The notes beneath the pieces were generated by a model. It worked only from the letters and a program-made list of their open reading frames with translations, searched no databases and was not told the origin of the DNA. Both the position numbers and the translations under genes were made by a program. A stretch of DNA of 47,446 nucleotides. Origin: a virus. Lineage: Duplodnaviria > Caudoviricetes. The stretch is taken from positions 1-47,446 of the IMG/VR virus record IMGVR_UViG_3300016665_000105, one strand, 5' to 3'. Below, piece by piece: positions 37,036-44,386 of the stretch; position 1 is the first letter of the stretch, and each line of letters starts with the position of its first letter.

Positions 37036-37854
37036 TTAGTCTCTCCACTTTTCCATCTCCTTCCATCGTTCTCCCACTTCAGCATCGACGGGGATGGTGA
37101 ACTGCTCTCCCTTGATGATGAGCGGACGACGAAGAAGGCTGATGACTTGGGGAACGATTTCGTTTACGAGTTGTATGGGAACTTCAAGCATCACGGAATC
37201 GTGAGCTGTGTTATTCATCACGATCTCACCCTTGCTAGGAAGCACGATGTCTTCATAGATCGCAAGGTTGCCGCCGCGCACTCCGACTTCGGGTTGGATG
37301 GCTCCGTGCATATGATCTGCGACGGTGCTTTGTGGCTCGAAAGCAGTCATCTCTTTCTTCAGATCATCTCCGTAGATTCCCCAGAACTTACGTCGGAATC
37401 CATACACAGTCTGCATCGTGCGAGTCGTGCTTGCGATGTAGTCGATCTCACTCCACCAGTTCTGGAGATTGAACGTACCTAACCACTTCGCATGGAATCG
37501 CTTCGCATCCGCAACGGAGATGGAGATCATGCCTTCCTTGTTGATGAACTCCGCGATCTTGAAGGGACCAGTACGATAGTTCCCTGCGTGGTTCATCTTC
37601 TTTCCGACGTATCGCTGCTCTTCGGAGATCAAGCCTGCATACTTCTTCTTGCCGGGAATGGTGAGATCCACGGCGATGTCGAAGATGCCCGTTGCTGAGA
37701 AGGAGTGGAGATCTCCGCCGTCAAGCTCGCGCTTCATGTTGGAATCGCTAGAGAGATACGCTACGATCCAAGCTTCGGCGGCGGAGAGATCGAATGCACA
37801 AAGCATCTTCCCCTTCGGAGCAACGTACATCGAACGGAGAGGGAGCTTAGTCAC
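37036..37854 (-). CDS. polA: DNA polymerase family A, C-terminal part (motifs A, B, C)
   Basis: AFDLSAAE, DLHS, RYVGKKMNHAGNY, GFRR, PQSTVAD, AHDS; GTG start with AGAGG SD. Confidence 0.92.
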   Translation of the reverse strand: MTKLPLRSMYVAPKGKMLCAFDLSAAEAWIVAYLSSDSNMKRELDGGDLHSFSATGIFDIAVDLTIPGKKKYAGLISEEQRYVGKKMNHAGNYRTGPFKIAEFINKEGMISISVADAKRFHAKWLGTFNLQNWWSEIDYIASTTRTMQTVYGFRRKFWGIYGDDLKKEMTAFEPQSTVADHMHGAIQPEVGVRGGNLAIYEDIVLPSKGEIVMNNTAHDSVMLEVPIQLVNEIVPQVISLLRRPLIIKGEQFTIPVDAEVGERWKEMEKWRD

Positions 37855-38050
37855 GGGGTTCCTCTTGTTCCATGAATAGGAGCGGATACTCGATTAGCTC
37901 GTTATGATAAGAGCGAGAAGTTCTGAACATCGCATGCCACTCCTCTTTCGTCATCGGCTCAGGCAAGCCGCCAGCCTCAGCTTCTTCTAGCGTGAGGCGG
38001 CGACGATTCGGACCTGTGCCTGTGGGGATACGATCTCCGCTCTTAATCAT
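37847..38050 (-). CDS. hypothetical protein (67 aa) between the two polA halves
   Basis: 8-nt overlaps with both neighbours. Confidence 0.65.
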   Translation of the reverse strand: MIKSGDRIPTGTGPNRRRLTLEEAEAGGLPEPMTKEEWHAMFRTSRSYHNELIEYPLLFMEQEEPRD

Positions 38051-38354
38051 GCAAGTACGTCAGCCTTTCAAGGTACCACATAGCCTTCTGAAGATCCTCA
38101 AGGGGCTTGCCCTTCTTGTCGTAGCGCCAGAGATACTTCATCGCATTGCCACGCAGGAAGCCTTTGTACATCTCGCGGGACATGGAAGCTTCGATTGCTT
38201 CGATGCAATCGTCGCCTCCGTAATGCGGTGGATTGTTGACGGCTTCGTAAGATGAAGCAGGAGCGTTCGCTGTGTCGGCTCCGAAGTTGTTGAGCTGCGT
38301 TGGATCTTCCATACGCATATTCTTCAGATCACCCTTCACATGAATGTAGCTCAT
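38043..38354 (-). CDS. DUF3310 protein (T7 gp1.7-like putative nucleotide kinase)
   Basis: VNNPPHY...CIEAI...GNAMKYLWRY..KG...DLQKA.WYL. Confidence 0.9.
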   Translation of the reverse strand: MSYIHVKGDLKNMRMEDPTQLNNFGADTANAPASSYEAVNNPPHYGGDDCIEAIEASMSREMYKGFLRGNAMKYLWRYDKKGKPLEDLQKAMWYLERLTYLHD

Positions 38355-39961
38355 ACACTCTCCCGTGGAATGGTTTGTCCGTTCAGACCCGTGCCATCAT
38401 ACCAAGATCCTGCACTCCAACGTCCAGTCTCAGTACCCCAGAACTTATACCAAGAACGTACACGATTATCGAGTGATACGTCGATGTTGATATAAGAAGA
38501 CAGAAGCTTATCGTATCCACGAATGCGAAGGATCAACTTCAACGCAGCAAGCTTGATACTCCACGGCTGCTTTCCGCTCTCCGTCTTCAGATCTTGCAGC
38601 TTCTTCTCCACAGTTCCCATCAGCGCAACGATGGCATCCTCTCCGCTGGTCACGTTGCCTTCGCTCGTAGTCTTGATGGGGAGACCTAGCGTATCGTAGA
38701 GAAAGGAATTGATCTTGGAGTGCTGCGATACTTTGAAGAGTTCAACGTTGAACATCTGCTGGATACCGATGAAGACCATGTAATCCTTGTCACGCTTCTG
38801 CTCTACGATATTGCGGAGTGCGAGCCTACGCTCTTCATCAACGAGCAATCCAGTATAGGAGATGTGCTTTGCAAGAGCGATCTGCTTCATCTTATACTGG
38901 TAATACTTCCACGATTGCTCATCGAACTCTAGCTGTTGTCCACGCTGTACGCGAGCCGTAGCTACGACATCCTTGCAGTTGTAGATCCCAAGCTTTGCTC
39001 GGTCGATACGATCCGTCGTTTCCTTTCCATCGTCCTTGTAGTAGTTCATGTCAGTATACATGGACGTACAGTAATCAAGACCGATAGGAAGCTCAGGCTG
39101 TAGTACATGCTGCGCCACCATCGTATCATAGTCCCATCCGTTCACCGTAAAGCCATTCTGTTCTAGCATGATCGTATCGAACATGCCGTTATGAAATGTC
39201 TTCGGGATGTCAGACTCCAAGAGCATGGAGACTACGCGACGAAAGTTCGGACCGATGGCGTTGCTCTCAAGGTTTCCATCGTTGAAGAAACACACCGCAT
39301 CGCACGGACTCCAAGCGAATCCGATGCAGCGAATGAAGGATGTGTTCTTCTTTGTCTCGATGTCAACGTATAGACGTTCAGCAGACAGCAGCGTCGGAAG
39401 CAAACCTTCCATCGTGAAGGAACTAGGATCAACGATGAAGTTGAACTTAGGCTCAACCCAACCATGTTCAGAGATAGCTTTTGCTTTCTTGATGTCATTC
39501 AAGAAGCCGGGAGTCTGAGCCCCATCACGCAACACGATGTGAGGAGCAACGGTAGGAATAACCCACGCATCTCCTACCTTATATGCAGAGCCACGATGCT
39601 TGTCCACTCCATCGAATCCAAGCAAGAAGTCCATCGCATGATTGCCCATCGCAACGATGACTTTATGCTTACTCTTCTTAAGATACTCTCGTAGTTCCTT
39701 GCGAGACTCTTCGAGTTGCCACGTTGTGTGTGACTTCTTGAAGTCATTCTTCGCCGGCTGATAGTTCAGCACGTTGCCTACGCGAACATCTGCCCTGTCA
39801 ATGCCGCACTCAGAGAGAGCTGCGTCGAATAGTTCGCCAGCTCTTCCGACAAGAGGACGCTGCAAAGAATCTTCTGTGCTACCGGGAGCTTCCCCCAAGA
39901 AGAAAAGCTTTGCGTCCTCCGGTCCCTCATGCGGGACTTTTCTTTCTGAGACTAATTTCAT
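38351..39961 (-). CDS. polA: DNA polymerase family A, N-terminal part: UDG family-4-like domain, 3'-5' exonuclease, thumb and first palm strands
   Basis: GEAPG..ED...P.VG.AG; Exo I DIET, Exo II HNGMFD, Exo III YNCKD; ends TETGRWS...LNGQTIPRESV. Confidence 0.92.
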   Translation of the reverse strand: MKLVSERKVPHEGPEDAKLFFLGEAPGSTEDSLQRPLVGRAGELFDAALSECGIDRADVRVGNVLNYQPAKNDFKKSHTTWQLEESRKELREYLKKSKHKVIVAMGNHAMDFLLGFDGVDKHRGSAYKVGDAWVIPTVAPHIVLRDGAQTPGFLNDIKKAKAISEHGWVEPKFNFIVDPSSFTMEGLLPTLLSAERLYVDIETKKNTSFIRCIGFAWSPCDAVCFFNDGNLESNAIGPNFRRVVSMLLESDIPKTFHNGMFDTIMLEQNGFTVNGWDYDTMVAQHVLQPELPIGLDYCTSMYTDMNYYKDDGKETTDRIDRAKLGIYNCKDVVATARVQRGQQLEFDEQSWKYYQYKMKQIALAKHISYTGLLVDEERRLALRNIVEQKRDKDYMVFIGIQQMFNVELFKVSQHSKINSFLYDTLGLPIKTTSEGNVTSGEDAIVALMGTVEKKLQDLKTESGKQPWSIKLAALKLILRIRGYDKLLSSYINIDVSLDNRVRSWYKFWGTETGRWSAGSWYDGTGLNGQTIPRESV

Positions 39962-40272: not shown

Positions 40273-40910
40273 ACGAACCTCGATATGTACGGGAAGTGAG
40301 GATCAATGGCTTCGGCACAAAGAAGTGCAAGATCACGATGCTCCTTCTGCGTAGAAGGATCGGTCCGCACTTGGATGTAGTGCATCCAGCTACGAAGAGA
40401 ACCAGTAACGTACATCGAAGATTCCGTCATGCCTTCGGGCAGGATGGTGCGAGCCACTTCCTTTGCGATGCCAGCTTCGATAGCTTGTTCGTATCCGAGA
40501 GACACGATGTTCATCACATTACGCTGGATGTCGGACCAGATACGATGTGTGTCAGGGTCTTGCGTAGGCAAAGAGTTCTGACGGTTCTTCTTGTCTTGCA
40601 TACGAGCAGGACGGAAGTGCAGCTGGCCCGTGTCCACCTTCGCATAGCGTTGCGAGAACTCTTGGAAGGAGAAGCTGCGATGACGCAGCATCTGCCTCGC
40701 AATGTCCCGCGTCGTCATGATGAAGAGCGTCATGTGTACCATCTCAAACGGGGACCAGTGCTTGTGTTCGATGAGATAGTCTAGAAGCTTTTCGTGCGGT
40801 GTGCCTTGATTCTTAGGGTTTGAGATTCTTGCATAGTATGCAACTTGCTCTGCAAGAGTTATCTCAGAAGGAAGGAAATCGGAGAGGGAGACTACTTCTG
40901 CGTAGTTCAT
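40248..40910 (-). CDS. thyX: flavin-dependent thymidylate synthase
   Basis: HWSPFEM, RQMLRHRSFSFQEFSQRY, KEVAR.ILP, GSLRSW.HY, TQKEHR. Confidence 0.97.
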   Translation of the reverse strand: MNYAEVVSLSDFLPSEITLAEQVAYYARISNPKNQGTPHEKLLDYLIEHKHWSPFEMVHMTLFIMTTRDIARQMLRHRSFSFQEFSQRYAKVDTGQLHFRPARMQDKKNRQNSLPTQDPDTHRIWSDIQRNVMNIVSLGYEQAIEAGIAKEVARTILPEGMTESSMYVTGSLRSWMHYIQVRTDPSTQKEHRDLALLCAEAIDPHFPYISRFVCGSDSSV

Positions 40911-41329
40911 GCTCCCATCCTCTGTTCCCACTTGTGCTTCAACTCGACGACGCGAGGAAGCTTTTGATATGCTTCGCGAATGATGAGAAGCGCGGCCTCT
41001 GCGGTGACTTCGTGAAACCCAGCCTCACTCTGCACGAACAAGCCCGGAACTTCCGTCGTCGGAGCCGTGACGATAGCGATGACAGCGCGCTCCGTTAGCA
41101 TGATGAGTTTGTTTCCCTCATCTGCATCATTCACTACCATGCCGGAGTAGGGATTGAAGACAACGTAATCCCCAACCTTGATCTCTTGCACTTCAGGTCC
41201 GACAGCCTTCACGATTCCTTGATCGCTACGATCCTTCGTAGATTCAGGACGGATGATGAGTGATCCATACCAAGTATCCGGATCATCAAGCGCAGCGACG
41301 AGGATGTTATCACGACGAGGGATAAGCAC
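40907..41329 (-). CDS. groES: GroES/Cpn10-like co-chaperonin with C-terminal extension
   Basis: LIPRRDNILV, GIVKAVGP, IKVGDYVVF..YSG, ERAVIAIV. Confidence 0.85.
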   Translation of the reverse strand: MLIPRRDNILVAALDDPDTWYGSLIIRPESTKDRSDQGIVKAVGPEVQEIKVGDYVVFNPYSGMVVNDADEGNKLIMLTERAVIAIVTAPTTEVPGLFVQSEAGFHEVTAEAALLIIREAYQKLPRVVELKHKWEQRMGA

Positions 41330-41510
41330 GTTCGATCTCCTTTAGTCCTAGTTGAACTACTTGATCTGCTTCATCTTTCAGGATCTTTGCGACCGCAAGA
41401 TACAGAGGATTCCTACTGGGGTGGCTCTCCAAATACAAAGCTGATCTGTTCAGAGCCTCCGCCATGCTGAACCTGTCGAGAGCTATTGTCTTTTGTGTAT
41501 CGGATGCCAT
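41310..41510 (-). CDS. hypothetical protein
   Basis: GAGG SD before ATG 41510 (alternative start 41537). Confidence 0.55.
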   Translation of the reverse strand: MASDTQKTIALDRFSMAEALNRSALYLESHPSRNPLYLAVAKILKDEADQVVQLGLKEIERAYPSS

Positions 41511-41533
41511 CCTTGTATCCTCTTTGATATGCG

Positions 41534-41728
41534 TCAACCAGCAACGTTTCTACTAGTGGGTTCAATTCCAGCTGCTTCAGCAATTCGAAGAAGCTTTGCT
41601 TTTCTTGCTTCAAAAAATAGGAGTTGCTCATGTAGTTCTCCCATGCGTTGAGTTATCTTGTCTATTTCGTCGAAGAGGTGATCTTGGAGGATACGTTCAA
41701 TGTTCGTTTCGATTACAGGACTAGTCAT
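41534..41728 (-). CDS. hypothetical coiled-coil protein (64 aa)
   Basis: First ORF after tRNA. Confidence 0.6.
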   Translation of the reverse strand: MTSPVIETNIERILQDHLFDEIDKITQRMGELHEQLLFFEARKAKLLRIAEAAGIEPTSRNVAG

Positions 41729-41756
41729 GATATATTTGGTTGAGGTTTGTACAGCA

Positions 41757-41827
41757 TAGCCCCGGCGGGAATCGAACCCGAGTAGCCTGATCCAAAGTCA
41801 GGTGCATTACCACTATGCTACGGGGCA
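41757..41827 (-). tRNA. tRNA-Gln (anticodon TTG), CCA not encoded
   Basis: TGCCCCG/CGGGGCT acceptor, GCAT-AGTGGTA-ATGC D arm, CCTGA-CTTTGGA-TCAGG anticodon arm, GGTTCGATTCC T loop. Confidence 0.92.
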
Positions 41828-41831
41828 AGAT

Positions 41832-42028
41832 GCAGGGAAAGCTTAGTGCAGGATAGCGTTCGCGTTCTCTGAGGGGGAGTCCATACTATCCTTTAGCGAG
41901 CGAGGAAGTACACCGAAAACTCTTGTCTCGCAACTCACACTAAGCTTCCGTGACAGGGGCGGAGTTGTCAGGTCGAAGGCATCTGCCAAATGTCTTCTTC
42001 GGTTTTACCGGCATGTCACGTTCCCTGC
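41832..42028. ncRNA. candidate structured ncRNA (multi-way junction with pseudoknot), class not recognised
   Basis: At least seven nested helices fill the ssb-tRNA gap (see findings). Confidence 0.65.
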
Positions 42029-42037
42029 TATGCTACA

Positions 42038-42523
42038 TTAGAACGGGCGGCAGCCGCGATAATTCTGGTACTGCTTATCGCCCTGAGTGCGGATGTCCAC
42101 GTTCACGATGAGGCGCGAACGAACGAGATCCACATACGCAGAACCCAGCGCACCGTTCTCCACATCCACGGAGAGATCCAGATCACCGAAGTTCTGACGG
42201 AACTCCTCATCCGCTTCCGCAGTACCGGGACGAATACCCTTGCAGCACATCACGAAACGAAGCAGCCGATCAAACGAAGTCTCGTCGTCGCCAACGATGA
42301 AGTCGATGTTCAGCGGCTTGCCAGCGAACTCCGCATCGCCAGCAGCATCCGCAACGATGCGAGTACCGAAGGCAACGATGTGCATCTTCTCGCCAGCGCG
42401 CTTGCCATTCTTAATGTCAACGACGCGATACTTGGCGGAGATAACTTCCACTTCGTATTCGTTAGCGGGAGCGATGAAGATAGTCGAGGAGAACTTGTCG
42501 AGATTCGGCTTGAAGATAGACAT
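42038..42523 (-). CDS. putative single-stranded DNA-binding protein (DUF669-like OB fold)
   Basis: PANEYEVEV.SAK...G.K pattern and C-terminal Y.N; follows Sak4-like and exonuclease genes. Confidence 0.65.
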   Translation of the reverse strand: MSIFKPNLDKFSSTIFIAPANEYEVEVISAKYRVVDIKNGKRAGEKMHIVAFGTRIVADAAGDAEFAGKPLNIDFIVGDDETSFDRLLRFVMCCKGIRPGTAEADEEFRQNFGDLDLSVDVENGALGSAYVDLVRSRLIVNVDIRTQGDKQYQNYRGCRPF

Positions 42524-42529
42524 GAGAAG

Positions 42530-43351
42530 TTAGCCTGAGGAAGAAGTTTGCCATGCGTGGATACGAGAGAACACTTGCTTTGCCGTGACGTCACGTTCAG
42601 GATTCTTGAAGAGTCCACCCCAGCGAGTCTTCGCCATGATGCCACCTTCCGATTCCGTCACGAACTCACGCTTCACGTTTGCACCAGAGCCCACGGTACG
42701 GATATACCATAGCATATCGAAGATACCGGGCATGGCATCTGGTGTATCAGTCCCCGTGAAGAGAGGCTTTACTGCGATTATGTTGTTCGTTCCCTCCTTG
42801 CGATAGAGTCTTTCGTGAGCGCAGACGATACAGTTCTTTCCTTCACTACGAAGACCATCCGTAAGCTGACGAAGGAAAGACTCAACCAATCCCATCTCTG
42901 TACCGAAGTCTGCGATGGTTGGGATGATGATGTCCTTGAACTTACCAGACTGTGCGTTGCCGGAAGTCTTAGACTTTCCAGAGATGCCGTTCAACTCGAT
43001 AGCCTTGTTCCGTGCAGCGATGCGCGTCGAGTTGATGTCGTCGATGACGATGCCTGACCAATCGTTCTTAGTAGCTGGTGCGAGCAGTCCGTCGATCTGA
43101 TTACGAAGAGTATCGAACATCTTCGGCATCGTGGGAGAATCATCGGGATGCAACTCCACGATGAAAGGATCTGTTCCCACCTTATCCTTGAACAGCTTCG
43201 ACTTCAACGTGATGATACCGTTGCGATCCGTGAGTACGATCCAGTCATCTCCTGCACCAGCAGCCCAGAACGTCTTGCCCGTACCTGCTGCACCGTACAG
43301 CATCATGCAAGTTCCTTCGATGCGCTTGTCTTGGCTCAGTCTCGTCAGCAT
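42530..43351 (-). CDS. Sak4-like AAA_24 ATPase / ssDNA-annealing recombinase
   Basis: LYGAAGTGKT, IVIDDI, VCAHE, FD..WY, AKTR. Confidence 0.85.
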   Translation of the reverse strand: MLTRLSQDKRIEGTCMMLYGAAGTGKTFWAAGAGDDWIVLTDRNGIITLKSKLFKDKVGTDPFIVELHPDDSPTMPKMFDTLRNQIDGLLAPATKNDWSGIVIDDINSTRIAARNKAIELNGISGKSKTSGNAQSGKFKDIIIPTIADFGTEMGLVESFLRQLTDGLRSEGKNCIVCAHERLYRKEGTNNIIAVKPLFTGTDTPDAMPGIFDMLWYIRTVGSGANVKREFVTESEGGIMAKTRWGGLFKNPERDVTAKQVFSRIHAWQTSSSG

Positions 43352-43352
43352 A

Positions 43353-43478
43353 TTAATCCTTATCAGGTCTGAGGATGTATAACAGAATCAAGGCAAAGTA
43401 AGCAACGGCCAACCAAGCTGCGACTGCGAGTCCAGCAACGAAGATGTTCAGTAGAGTTTGGAAGATTGCGTTCTGCAT
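43353..43478 (-). CDS. 41-aa membrane peptide (MQNAIFQTLLNIFVAGLAVAAWLAVAYF...), not in ORF track
   Basis: AAGGA SD; fills the gap exactly; long hydrophobic helix. Confidence 0.6.
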   Translation of the reverse strand: MQNAIFQTLLNIFVAGLAVAAWLAVAYFALILLYILRPDKD

Positions 43479-43480
43479 AC

Positions 43481-44386
43481 TTATTCCTTGATTGCTTGTT
43501 GGTCAACTTCTTCATGCTTCCAAGGCTGGAGAAGATACTGAGTGCGAAGCATGTTCTCCATAGAAGCTTCGGATGGCTGAGTGCAGACTTGCCGGTAGTC
43601 GCAGAAGGAACAGGATACTTCGTGCATAGGCCAGACATCTGCTTCACGACACGCTGCCATCTGCTTGTGAATGAATAGCTGTTCATCAAGCCATCGCTTC
43701 ACTTGCACCATCGTGCGAGATGACGGGATGTTCTGAACGTCAGGCCCGACAGTCTTCGTGTTGTAGATAGCGGTGAAGAGAACTCCGTCGATCACGCGAT
43801 TCGGATAGCCGTTCTCATCCATGCCATGCTGCAAGCAAGATGCAGCGTAGATGTAACGGATAGCCTGATCGTTAGGCTCAAGACCCTGCTTGAAATACTG
43901 TATCTGTTTCGATGTAGTCTTCCAGTCACGAATCCAGATACGTCCATTCCAGCGGATGAGCTGATCCCATCTTCCTCCGATAGACACGCCATCCGGAAGA
44001 ACGAAAGAGAACGGTTGCTCGATAGCTTCGACACGGATGATGCCGTTCTTCTTCTCTTCATTGTACATCGCAGACAGCTTTGCGACAGTAAGAATGAAGC
44101 GTTCCTTGCTCTGAAACTCAAAGCTCGGATTCGTCGGTGAACGAAAGAGCTTGATTGCTGTTTGTGCTGCTGCTCCCGGATCTCCCGTTTCGTAGAGGAT
44201 CTCAAGATACTTATGCAACGCTGAACCCCAAGCAAACACAGACTGCCACTTCCCCTCAGGTGGAGTGCGACCAAGGACCATACGATAGAAGTATTTCCGT
44301 GGGCATTCCTTGAAACACTTCGTCGCTGTGTGATCCATGCTTTCAGGTTCAAAGCGTGGCAATGTCGGGAGCAGTTTCTTTGTCAT
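43481..44386 (-). CDS. PD-(D/E)XK exonuclease (Cas4/AddB-like, four-Cys cluster)
   Basis: CPRKY, GSALH, GRWD, DWKT, Q...Y, CSFCDYRQVC. Confidence 0.9.
   Translation of the reverse strand: MTKKLLPTLPRFEPESMDHTATKCFKECPRKYFYRMVLGRTPPEGKWQSVFAWGSALHKYLEILYETGDPGAAAQTAIKLFRSPTNPSFEFQSKERFILTVAKLSAMYNEEKKNGIIRVEAIEQPFSFVLPDGVSIGGRWDQLIRWNGRIWIRDWKTTSKQIQYFKQGLEPNDQAIRYIYAASCLQHGMDENGYPNRVIDGVLFTAIYNTKTVGPDVQNIPSSRTMVQVKRWLDEQLFIHKQMAACREADVWPMHEVSCSFCDYRQVCTQPSEASMENMLRTQYLLQPWKHEEVDQQAIKE

Follow-up and report, generated by a model that had tools for sequence, protein, structure and literature searches.

The virus record IMGVR_UViG_3300016665_000105, hereafter the window (the whole 47-kb stretch of DNA that was analysed, 95% complete by CheckV), holds a 197-nt structured RNA element on its minus strand, between an ssb-like gene and a transfer RNA gene, tRNA-Gln(UUG). 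Homologues and covariation bear out a preliminary description, made from the window alone, of a multi-helix element of this length at this place, and we hold it very probable that the element is a functional RNA. By its fold and core it appears to be a new, uncatalogued RNA class of freshwater phages. Its function we infer: in the reading that we prefer, with a probability of roughly 0.4, the element is a stable free RNA excised from the exonuclease–Sak4–ssb transcript that would bind a host protein, with a defence factor as the most plausible target.

A pseudoknotted fold supported by covariation

Read on the minus strand, the element opens with a closing stem, P1, followed by arm A and arm B, and comprises two three-way junctions and one long-range pseudoknot. 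Arm A consists of P2a, a 1×3 internal loop whose 3′ side is C-N-C (41958–41956), P2b, and then AAA, the first pseudoknot strand and a variable hairpin; in arm B, P3 leads to the second three-way junction, from which P4 and P5 extend. The parts are as follows, with the number of pairs that show two-sided change.

41832–42028, minus: structured RNA element, 197 nt, read 42028 to 41832; defined by covariance model and covariation, with RNA-seq contigs over 41858–42019 and 41848–42019
42021–42028, minus: P1 5′ strand, closing stem; two-sided change in 3/6 pairs
41832–41839, minus: P1 3′ strand; ends 4 nt before tRNA +1
42014–42020, minus: P2a 5′ strand, arm A; 4/7 pairs, 100% paired
41949–41955, minus: P2a 3′ strand; covariation
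42008–42012, minus: P2b 5′ strand; 3/4 pairs, one occurring as G–C, C–G and U–A
41959–41963, minus: P2b 3′ strand; overlaps the GAGTTG segment of the preliminary description
41998–42003, minus: pseudoknot 5′ strand ACCGAA; preceded by an invariant AAA (42006–42004)
41912–41917, minus: pseudoknot 3′ strand UUCGGU, in the P4 loop; within the conserved segment AA.AGUU..GGUGU.CUU
41975–41997, minus: variable hairpin of arm A; length and sequence differ among lineages
41938–41946, minus: P3 5′ strand, arm B; 4/8 pairs; follows the A-rich junction J2/3
41840–41848, minus: P3 3′ strand; covariation
41927–41931, minus: P4 5′ strand; 3/5 pairs; follows a conserved G.GUU junction
41896–41900, minus: P4 3′ strand; followed by an invariant UAA junction (41895–41893)
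41885–41892, minus: P5 5′ strand; 4/8 pairs; P5 closes a variable loop
41850–41857, minus: P5 3′ strand; covariation

Several lines of evidence, from seven distinct members designated by their loci (L001 and so on), support this fold. First, six members aligned plainly with MAFFT have 97.9% of cells paired and two-sided change in 13 of 49 pairs, against 0–3 in controls with slid partners. Second, in a model-fitted alignment of all seven members, including the distant L072, two-sided change occurs in 24 of 44 pairs and in every nested helix; this alignment leans to nested structure, its cells stand for sequences and not for separate events, and the relatedness of the members inflates the shuffle control. 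Third, the pseudoknot between 42003–41998 and 41917–41912, which lies outside the aligning model, shows two-sided change in 3/6 pairs: three pairs are invariant, and the others change from G–C to A–U, from A–U to C–G (U–U in four members) and from C–G to A–U. Fourth, L072 folded without constraints yields P1, P2a and P2b again, together with the base of P3. The six nested helices and the pseudoknot all covary, which shows the fold to be real.

The closing stem and both arms were already outlined in the preliminary description and covary in the homologues. All eight complementary pairs that it listed occur at the positions given, with one non-Watson–Crick position in GAAGGCAT/ATGTCTTC, and its spacing is accurate: the element begins 9 nt past the ssb-like stop codon and ends 4 nt before tRNA-Gln +1 (Rfam, 41827–41757). 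That the fold is pseudoknotted also stands, but through a different pairing from the one proposed. The proposed CAACTC/GAGTTG pseudoknot is paired in 61% of cells, has two-sided change in 0/6 pairs and collides with the covarying P2b. A CGGT-TTT-ACCG hairpin, likewise listed, is present in the window but broken in L004 and L027.

Two further pairings were considered and set aside. A short helix in the P4 loop (GAG/CUC), present in six members, is disrupted in L072 and does not enter the 24/44 count, and a pairing of the GGU segment with the CCA end of the tRNA fits L072 only.

Folding energy had been named as a check on the element. Against dinucleotide shuffles the window does better than chance (z of −2.78 for plus-strand RNA, −2.28 for minus-strand RNA and −3.57 for DNA), but close homologues taken alone are weaker (−1.49 for L001, −1.88 for L004). 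The distant L072 reaches −4.07, with 0/200 shuffles as good. It is covariation, rather than folding energy, that is the decisive evidence for the element.

Strand, coding potential and expression

The strand, left uncertain in the preliminary description because of G–U pairs in both orientations, is minus: six types of G–U pair occur on that strand against one A–C, which comes from a register slip in the alignment; in 7/7 members the folding z is better for the sense strand; and the flanking genes of the element all lie on the minus strand.

A 24-codon minus-strand open reading frame (ORF) at 42014–41940 translates as the preliminary description had it, and with an AGGGA upstream of it in the window it could suggest a leader-peptide or small-protein gene. 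It is not conserved, however: an ATG stands at the site in 3/7 members, with lengths of 24, 17 and 20 codons; the ORF is lost in L024, which is 98.5% identical; and no reading frame is conserved across the seven members, indels being out of frame. Comparison of the members refutes the ORF as a conserved feature, and the chance that the element is such a gene is close to negligible.

Four RNA-labelled runs, chosen because they share sequence words with this stretch of the window, were mapped to window positions 40900–43400. A contig from run X18 covers 41858–42019 with 0 differences and one from run X20 covers 41848–42019 with 2 differences. Both lie wholly inside the element, both end at 42019, and the runs come from different studies and years; run X19, which is probably DNA, continues through 42019. 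X20 yields no other piece in the 2.5 kb, and X18 additionally yields a diverged Sak4 piece. These contigs are a weak hint that the element is transcribed as a discrete species.

The same structure could in principle be formed by single-stranded DNA (ssDNA), serving as a replication origin or priming signal within the replication module. The position beside ssb and Sak4 and the DNA folding z given above are in keeping with this, and comparative data cannot reliably separate ssDNA from RNA motifs (PMC5737381). On the other hand, the six types of G–U pair on one strand and the RNA contigs speak for RNA, and the element is missing from seven sister loci and from a 90% complete relative; we consider an ssDNA role highly improbable.

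A patchy family anchored behind ssb

The neighbours of the element are the following.

42038–42523, minus: ssb-like gene, 161 aa, oligonucleotide/oligosaccharide-binding (OB) fold; upstream neighbour of every homologue found
41757–41827, minus: tRNA-Gln(UUG), Rfam match; downstream neighbour in 6/7 distinct members
42530–44386, minus: Sak4-like annealase (43351–42530) and PD-(D/E)XK exonuclease (44386–43481), in the same co-directional module

Searches with ssb and Sak4 gave 18 loci with a readable stretch behind ssb, some of them the same contig filed twice; L074, which stops before ssb, was omitted from the counts. The element is present in 10 of the 18 (L001–L004, L024–L027, L031 and L072). 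Seven lack it and pass from ssb to tRNA-Gln in 9–56 nt (L005, L006, L023, L028–L030 and L073), and one, L022, has an unrelated-looking 200-nt insert instead. Together with the window this makes seven distinct element sequences of 174–209 nt in four lineages, at identities of 98.5%, 63–70% and 48–57%. The most distant is L072, from a phage with a Sak4 of 36% identity; the covariance model R1, built without L072, detected it out of sample (72.6 bits, E = 2e-19).

In all members ssb precedes the element, with a gap of 9–22 nt in close ones. The tRNA-Gln follows P1 at about 4 nt in six members, but in L072 two ORFs, the first of the Acb2/Tad1 family, lie between element and tRNA, so the tRNA adjacency reported for the window is not obligatory. 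What stays constant next to the element is ssb rather than the tRNA.

The presence of the element requires at least two changes on both the ssb and the Sak4 trees, and the carriers form one clade in no bootstrap tree; because of this, its patchy distribution would reflect repeated loss or exchange. Besides the element, the slot behind ssb holds the tRNA, variable small ORFs and, in L072, the Acb2/Tad1-family gene. The absences show that the element is dispensable in sister phages. Relative to L024 the element is 99% identical where ssb is only 91.6% identical, and relative to L001, L002, L004 and L027 it is 62–66% identical where ssb is 81–84% and the tRNA 77% identical. Judging from sequence, element and tRNA may move as a cassette.

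Where the element is absent, the site is mostly not bare. L005, L030 and L073 carry hairpins of 9–16 bp that end just before the tRNA, and L006, L028 and L029 carry weaker ones; the L030 stem, which resembles P1 of the window and scores against the P1 of the model at E = 0.37, may be a remnant of P1. These hairpins support the strongest rival to our reading, a cis-acting 3′-end element of the ssb mRNA. Here the fold would be an elaborate version of the sister phages' hairpin that stays attached after the RNase P cut and blocks 3′–5′ decay or binds SSB in a feedback loop. The presence of ssb upstream in all seven distinct members also fits. A plain hairpin evidently suffices for such a task, however, leaving unexplained a pseudoknotted core conserved at 50% identity, and the two RNA contigs stop short of ssb, a weak point. 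We judge a cis role rather unlikely.

The L022 insert (L022:3490–3690, plus) is non-coding and occupies the ssb–tRNA slot with several hairpins and two UUGGGGG loops, with which a CUUUCUCC loop could pair; its folding z is −1.36. It has no detectable match to the element (E = 0.2 with R1, 0.43 with model R2), no Rfam match, and no second copy among the sequences searched, and is possibly a second RNA class.

Exact-pattern scans of viral contigs returned 5, 4 and 35 stretches, among which the homologues were only the four contigs already known; L010 and 31 other pattern matches were chance by inspection, and the nine of these run against the model gave none at E < 1. GTDB genomes gave 0 matches to a 21-base pattern, which says little since that pattern would miss L072, and two weak partial matches in an ssb profile search. 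Model R2 matched 1/7 related records, 0/5 other phage records and 0/151 genomes of one bacterial phylum, probably not that of the host. With blastn, 50,697 phage records matched only at the tRNA and otherwise at E = 8, and plasmids gave one match at E = 0.6. Because the search for members was limited by the exact-pattern scans, the family may be wider than seen.

Comparison with known RNA families

The preliminary description could name no known class, and none emerged. Rfam 15 (4227 models) gives no family match for the window, L072 or L004: only the tRNA is found in the window (at gathering level over the whole window, and at E ≤ 10 over 41600–42200), L072 has two matches far under gathering (E = 0.75 and 3.3), and L004 has none at E ≤ 10. 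Short core motifs of ribozymes, RNase P, the signal recognition particle, T-box and two riboswitches occur in 0/7 members. ARAGORN finds no transfer-messenger RNA (tmRNA), and there is no conserved tag frame. No dedicated partner gene of the kind associated with omega, bridge, retron or DRT guide RNAs was found, and the neighbouring ssb, Sak4 and exonuclease genes also occur in element-less phages. The longest complementarity of the element to its own phage record is 11–13 nt, within the shuffled range, in 4/4 records. In the literature searched, supplements excluded, the motif is nowhere described; the motif tables that accompany PMC5737381 could bear on its novelty. Resemblances to motifs of RNase P and tmRNA pk4, to T-box stem I and to the cobalamin and cyclic di-GMP-I riboswitches failed through wrong order or lack of conservation.

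In its size, its two three-way junctions, its pseudoknot and the invariant residues at its junctions the element is riboswitch-like. A ligand-binding aptamer would act either as a riboswitch-like sensor for downstream genes or as an RNA sponge for a nucleotide immune signal, and in L072 about 30 nt separate the element from the ribosome-binding site of a gene for an Acb2/Tad1 sponge, whose ORF starts about 40 nt downstream. Yet known riboswitch aptamer models, including T-box, give no match at E ≤ 10, the minus strand of the window has no terminator-like site at the element, the tRNA follows in 6/7 members, and P1 locks both ends. An aptamer is therefore, in our view, quite unlikely. The L072 sponge gene (L072:4577–4798, plus; hairpin-domain family PF24729, E = 1.1e-11) stands directly behind the element.

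For a new ribozyme, cutting or processing the transcript beside the tRNA, speak the compact conserved core and the theta ribozymes, hepatitis delta virus (HDV)-like RNAs which phages place next to tRNAs, where they serve tRNA 3′ ends (PMC10879173). Theta ribozymes resemble the element as phage RNA structures abutting a tRNA gene, but they are minimal and sit at tRNA 3′ ends, whereas the element is much larger, lies 5′ of the tRNA and is two ORFs away from it in L072. The nested double pseudoknot of theta and HDV-like ribozymes is absent, the element having two three-way junctions and one long-range pseudoknot. No Rfam ribozyme matches; short core motifs of hammerhead, twister and pistol occur in 0/7 members, as do those of RNase P RNA CR-I and CR-V (the P4 pseudoknot), again with no Rfam match; and the tRNA gene is kept without the element in seven loci. 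We find a ribozyme very unlikely.

Other RNAs share individual traits with the element. The phi29 pRNA, of ~170–200 nt, has a three-way junction, loop–loop pairing and a bulged C-rich motif, and is like the element in each of these respects; the element differs in topology, has no Rfam match to it and lies in a recombination module, and the window phage has a large terminase of ordinary type (phrog_38). Phage mimics of the antitoxin RNA ToxI are reportedly short repeats, whereas the element is one RNA that has several junctions and a long-range pseudoknot. Those mimics (pseudo-ToxI), evolved by phage PhiTE, are a precedent for phage RNA as a counter-defence decoy (PMC3594212). The raiA motif RNA, 205 nt long (PMC12286853) and from Firmicutes and Actinobacteria (PMC5737381), is a compact orphan non-coding RNA of the same size class, but it is bacterial and the element has no Rfam match to it at E ≤ 10.

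The habit of lying near tRNAs is shared with ROOL and GOLLD, pseudoknotted RNAs of phages and prophages often found near tRNAs (PMC12286853, PMC5737381), and with RNAC and RNAD, small RNAs from the tRNA region of phage T4 (PMC3014915, PMC9697503), all with roles given as unknown in these papers; the novelty of the element is its fold and core. ROOL and GOLLD have many hundreds of nucleotides, whereas the element has 174–209, has no Rfam match and is fixed behind ssb. It has no blastn match to RNAC or RNAD outside the tRNA, a comparison of sequence rather than fold. Covariation of the pseudoknot cannot separate intramolecular from intermolecular pairing of the kind seen in ROOL- and GOLLD-like kissing loops, and the long-range pseudoknot could pair between molecules, building rings or cages.

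Proposed role

We think it somewhat probable that the element acts as a free-standing RNA. With both ends paired in P1 it resembles a self-contained RNA, and its downstream neighbour changes between tRNA and ORF, something that a 5′ cis-regulator should not readily accommodate. There is no promoter-like site on the minus strand within 3 kb upstream of the element, and no gene of the window is confined to carriers, which makes a dedicated phage partner unlikely. Taken together with the missing terminator and the chance-level complementarity, these features argue for a free RNA working by its shape on a host factor.

RNase P processes tRNA 5′ ends as an established host activity. In the proposed mechanism, the element would be cut out of the exonuclease–Sak4–ssb transcript as a stable free RNA; wherever the tRNA comes next, RNase P would free the 3′ end by cutting at tRNA-Gln +1, and P1 would protect both ends. 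The free RNA would then tie up a host protein, with a defence factor the most plausible candidate, through invariant unpaired residues: the AAA before the pseudoknot, the C-N-C bulge, G.GUU, AA.AGUU/GU.CUU and UAA. Since most relatives that lack the element retain a hairpin immediately ahead of the tRNA, P1 probably has a second task as the stem that protects the end after RNase P cleavage, with the inner fold an optional addition under its own selection.

That the element is a decoy or scaffold for a host protein is a tentative proposal, short of even odds. Counter-defence would be its most likely single purpose, favoured by the patchy spread, the neighbours, the antitoxin-mimic precedent and the triggering of DRT4 defence by phage SSB (10.64898/2026.10.21.760695); that the element serves it specifically is nonetheless doubtful. 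Equally speculative is the fuller version, a compact phage RNA class, co-expressed with an SSB protein of the kind known to set off bacterial immunity, that neutralizes defence by its tertiary fold, as an immune-protein decoy or a cyclic-nucleotide sponge; if true, an RNA sponge would do the job of the Acb2/Tad1 proteins.

Several observations weigh against a free RNA that binds a host protein. Attempts to identify the phage host gave none. Only four lineages among the loci found carry the element, and neither the window nor the other records checked showed an Acb2/Tad1 gene, leaving this neighbour to one genome. The plain hairpins of most element-less relatives would fit a purely cis role for P1. 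RNA run X17 covers ssb and Sak4 but not the element, and the X18 and X20 contigs, at depths of 3.6 and 4.2 and without a silent-stretch control, show neither ends nor strand.

Riboswitches, ribozymes and ribonucleoprotein scaffolds have emerged from the size class of the element, that of pseudoknotted RNAs of ~200 nt in which every helix covaries. The family offers natural variants from 98% down to 50% identity, together with natural 'deletion' relatives that carry a bare hairpin, so that the role of phage tRNA-region RNAs becomes testable on a small, tractable element.

Genomic setting and neighbouring genes

The structural genes of the window lie on the plus strand, and a minus-strand block holds the element with the replication and recombination genes, in the order PD-(D/E)XK exonuclease, Sak4-like annealase, 161-aa protein, element, tRNA-Gln(UUG), small ORFs, GroES, ThyX and a split family-A polymerase. 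The run with the complete window DNA and most other runs containing that DNA carry the labels freshwater, riverine, aquatic or wastewater.

Neither Pfam nor PHROG gives a match for the 161-aa protein. Its predicted structure (pLDDT, the predicted local distance difference test, 91.5) matches best the fold of PrgE (E = 1.7e-5), followed by chains of RPA and SsbB, and the protein also resembles a DUF669 cluster, as a lead only; because of these resemblances the label 'ssb-like' seems reasonable.

The family-A DNA polymerase is split in two genes (37036–39961, minus), one with a uracil-DNA glycosylase-like part plus 3′–5′ exonuclease (536 aa) and the other with the polymerase domain (272 aa). A DUF3310 gene and a small ORF lie between them, and relatives have homologues of both polymerase parts. 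A GroES-like co-chaperonin with a C-terminal extension (40907–41329, minus) is found in most related records.

The tRNA-Gln(UUG) gene stands near the 3′ side of ssb throughout this phage group, even at 33–36% Sak4 identity. A 9-nt direct repeat links the short leader before the element (42036–42028) with the start of the tRNA-Gln acceptor and D-stem on the minus strand. L001 lacks this repeat, and L027 has an 8-nt version that matches its own tRNA variant; the repeat could be the scar of an insertion or could compete with the D-stem.
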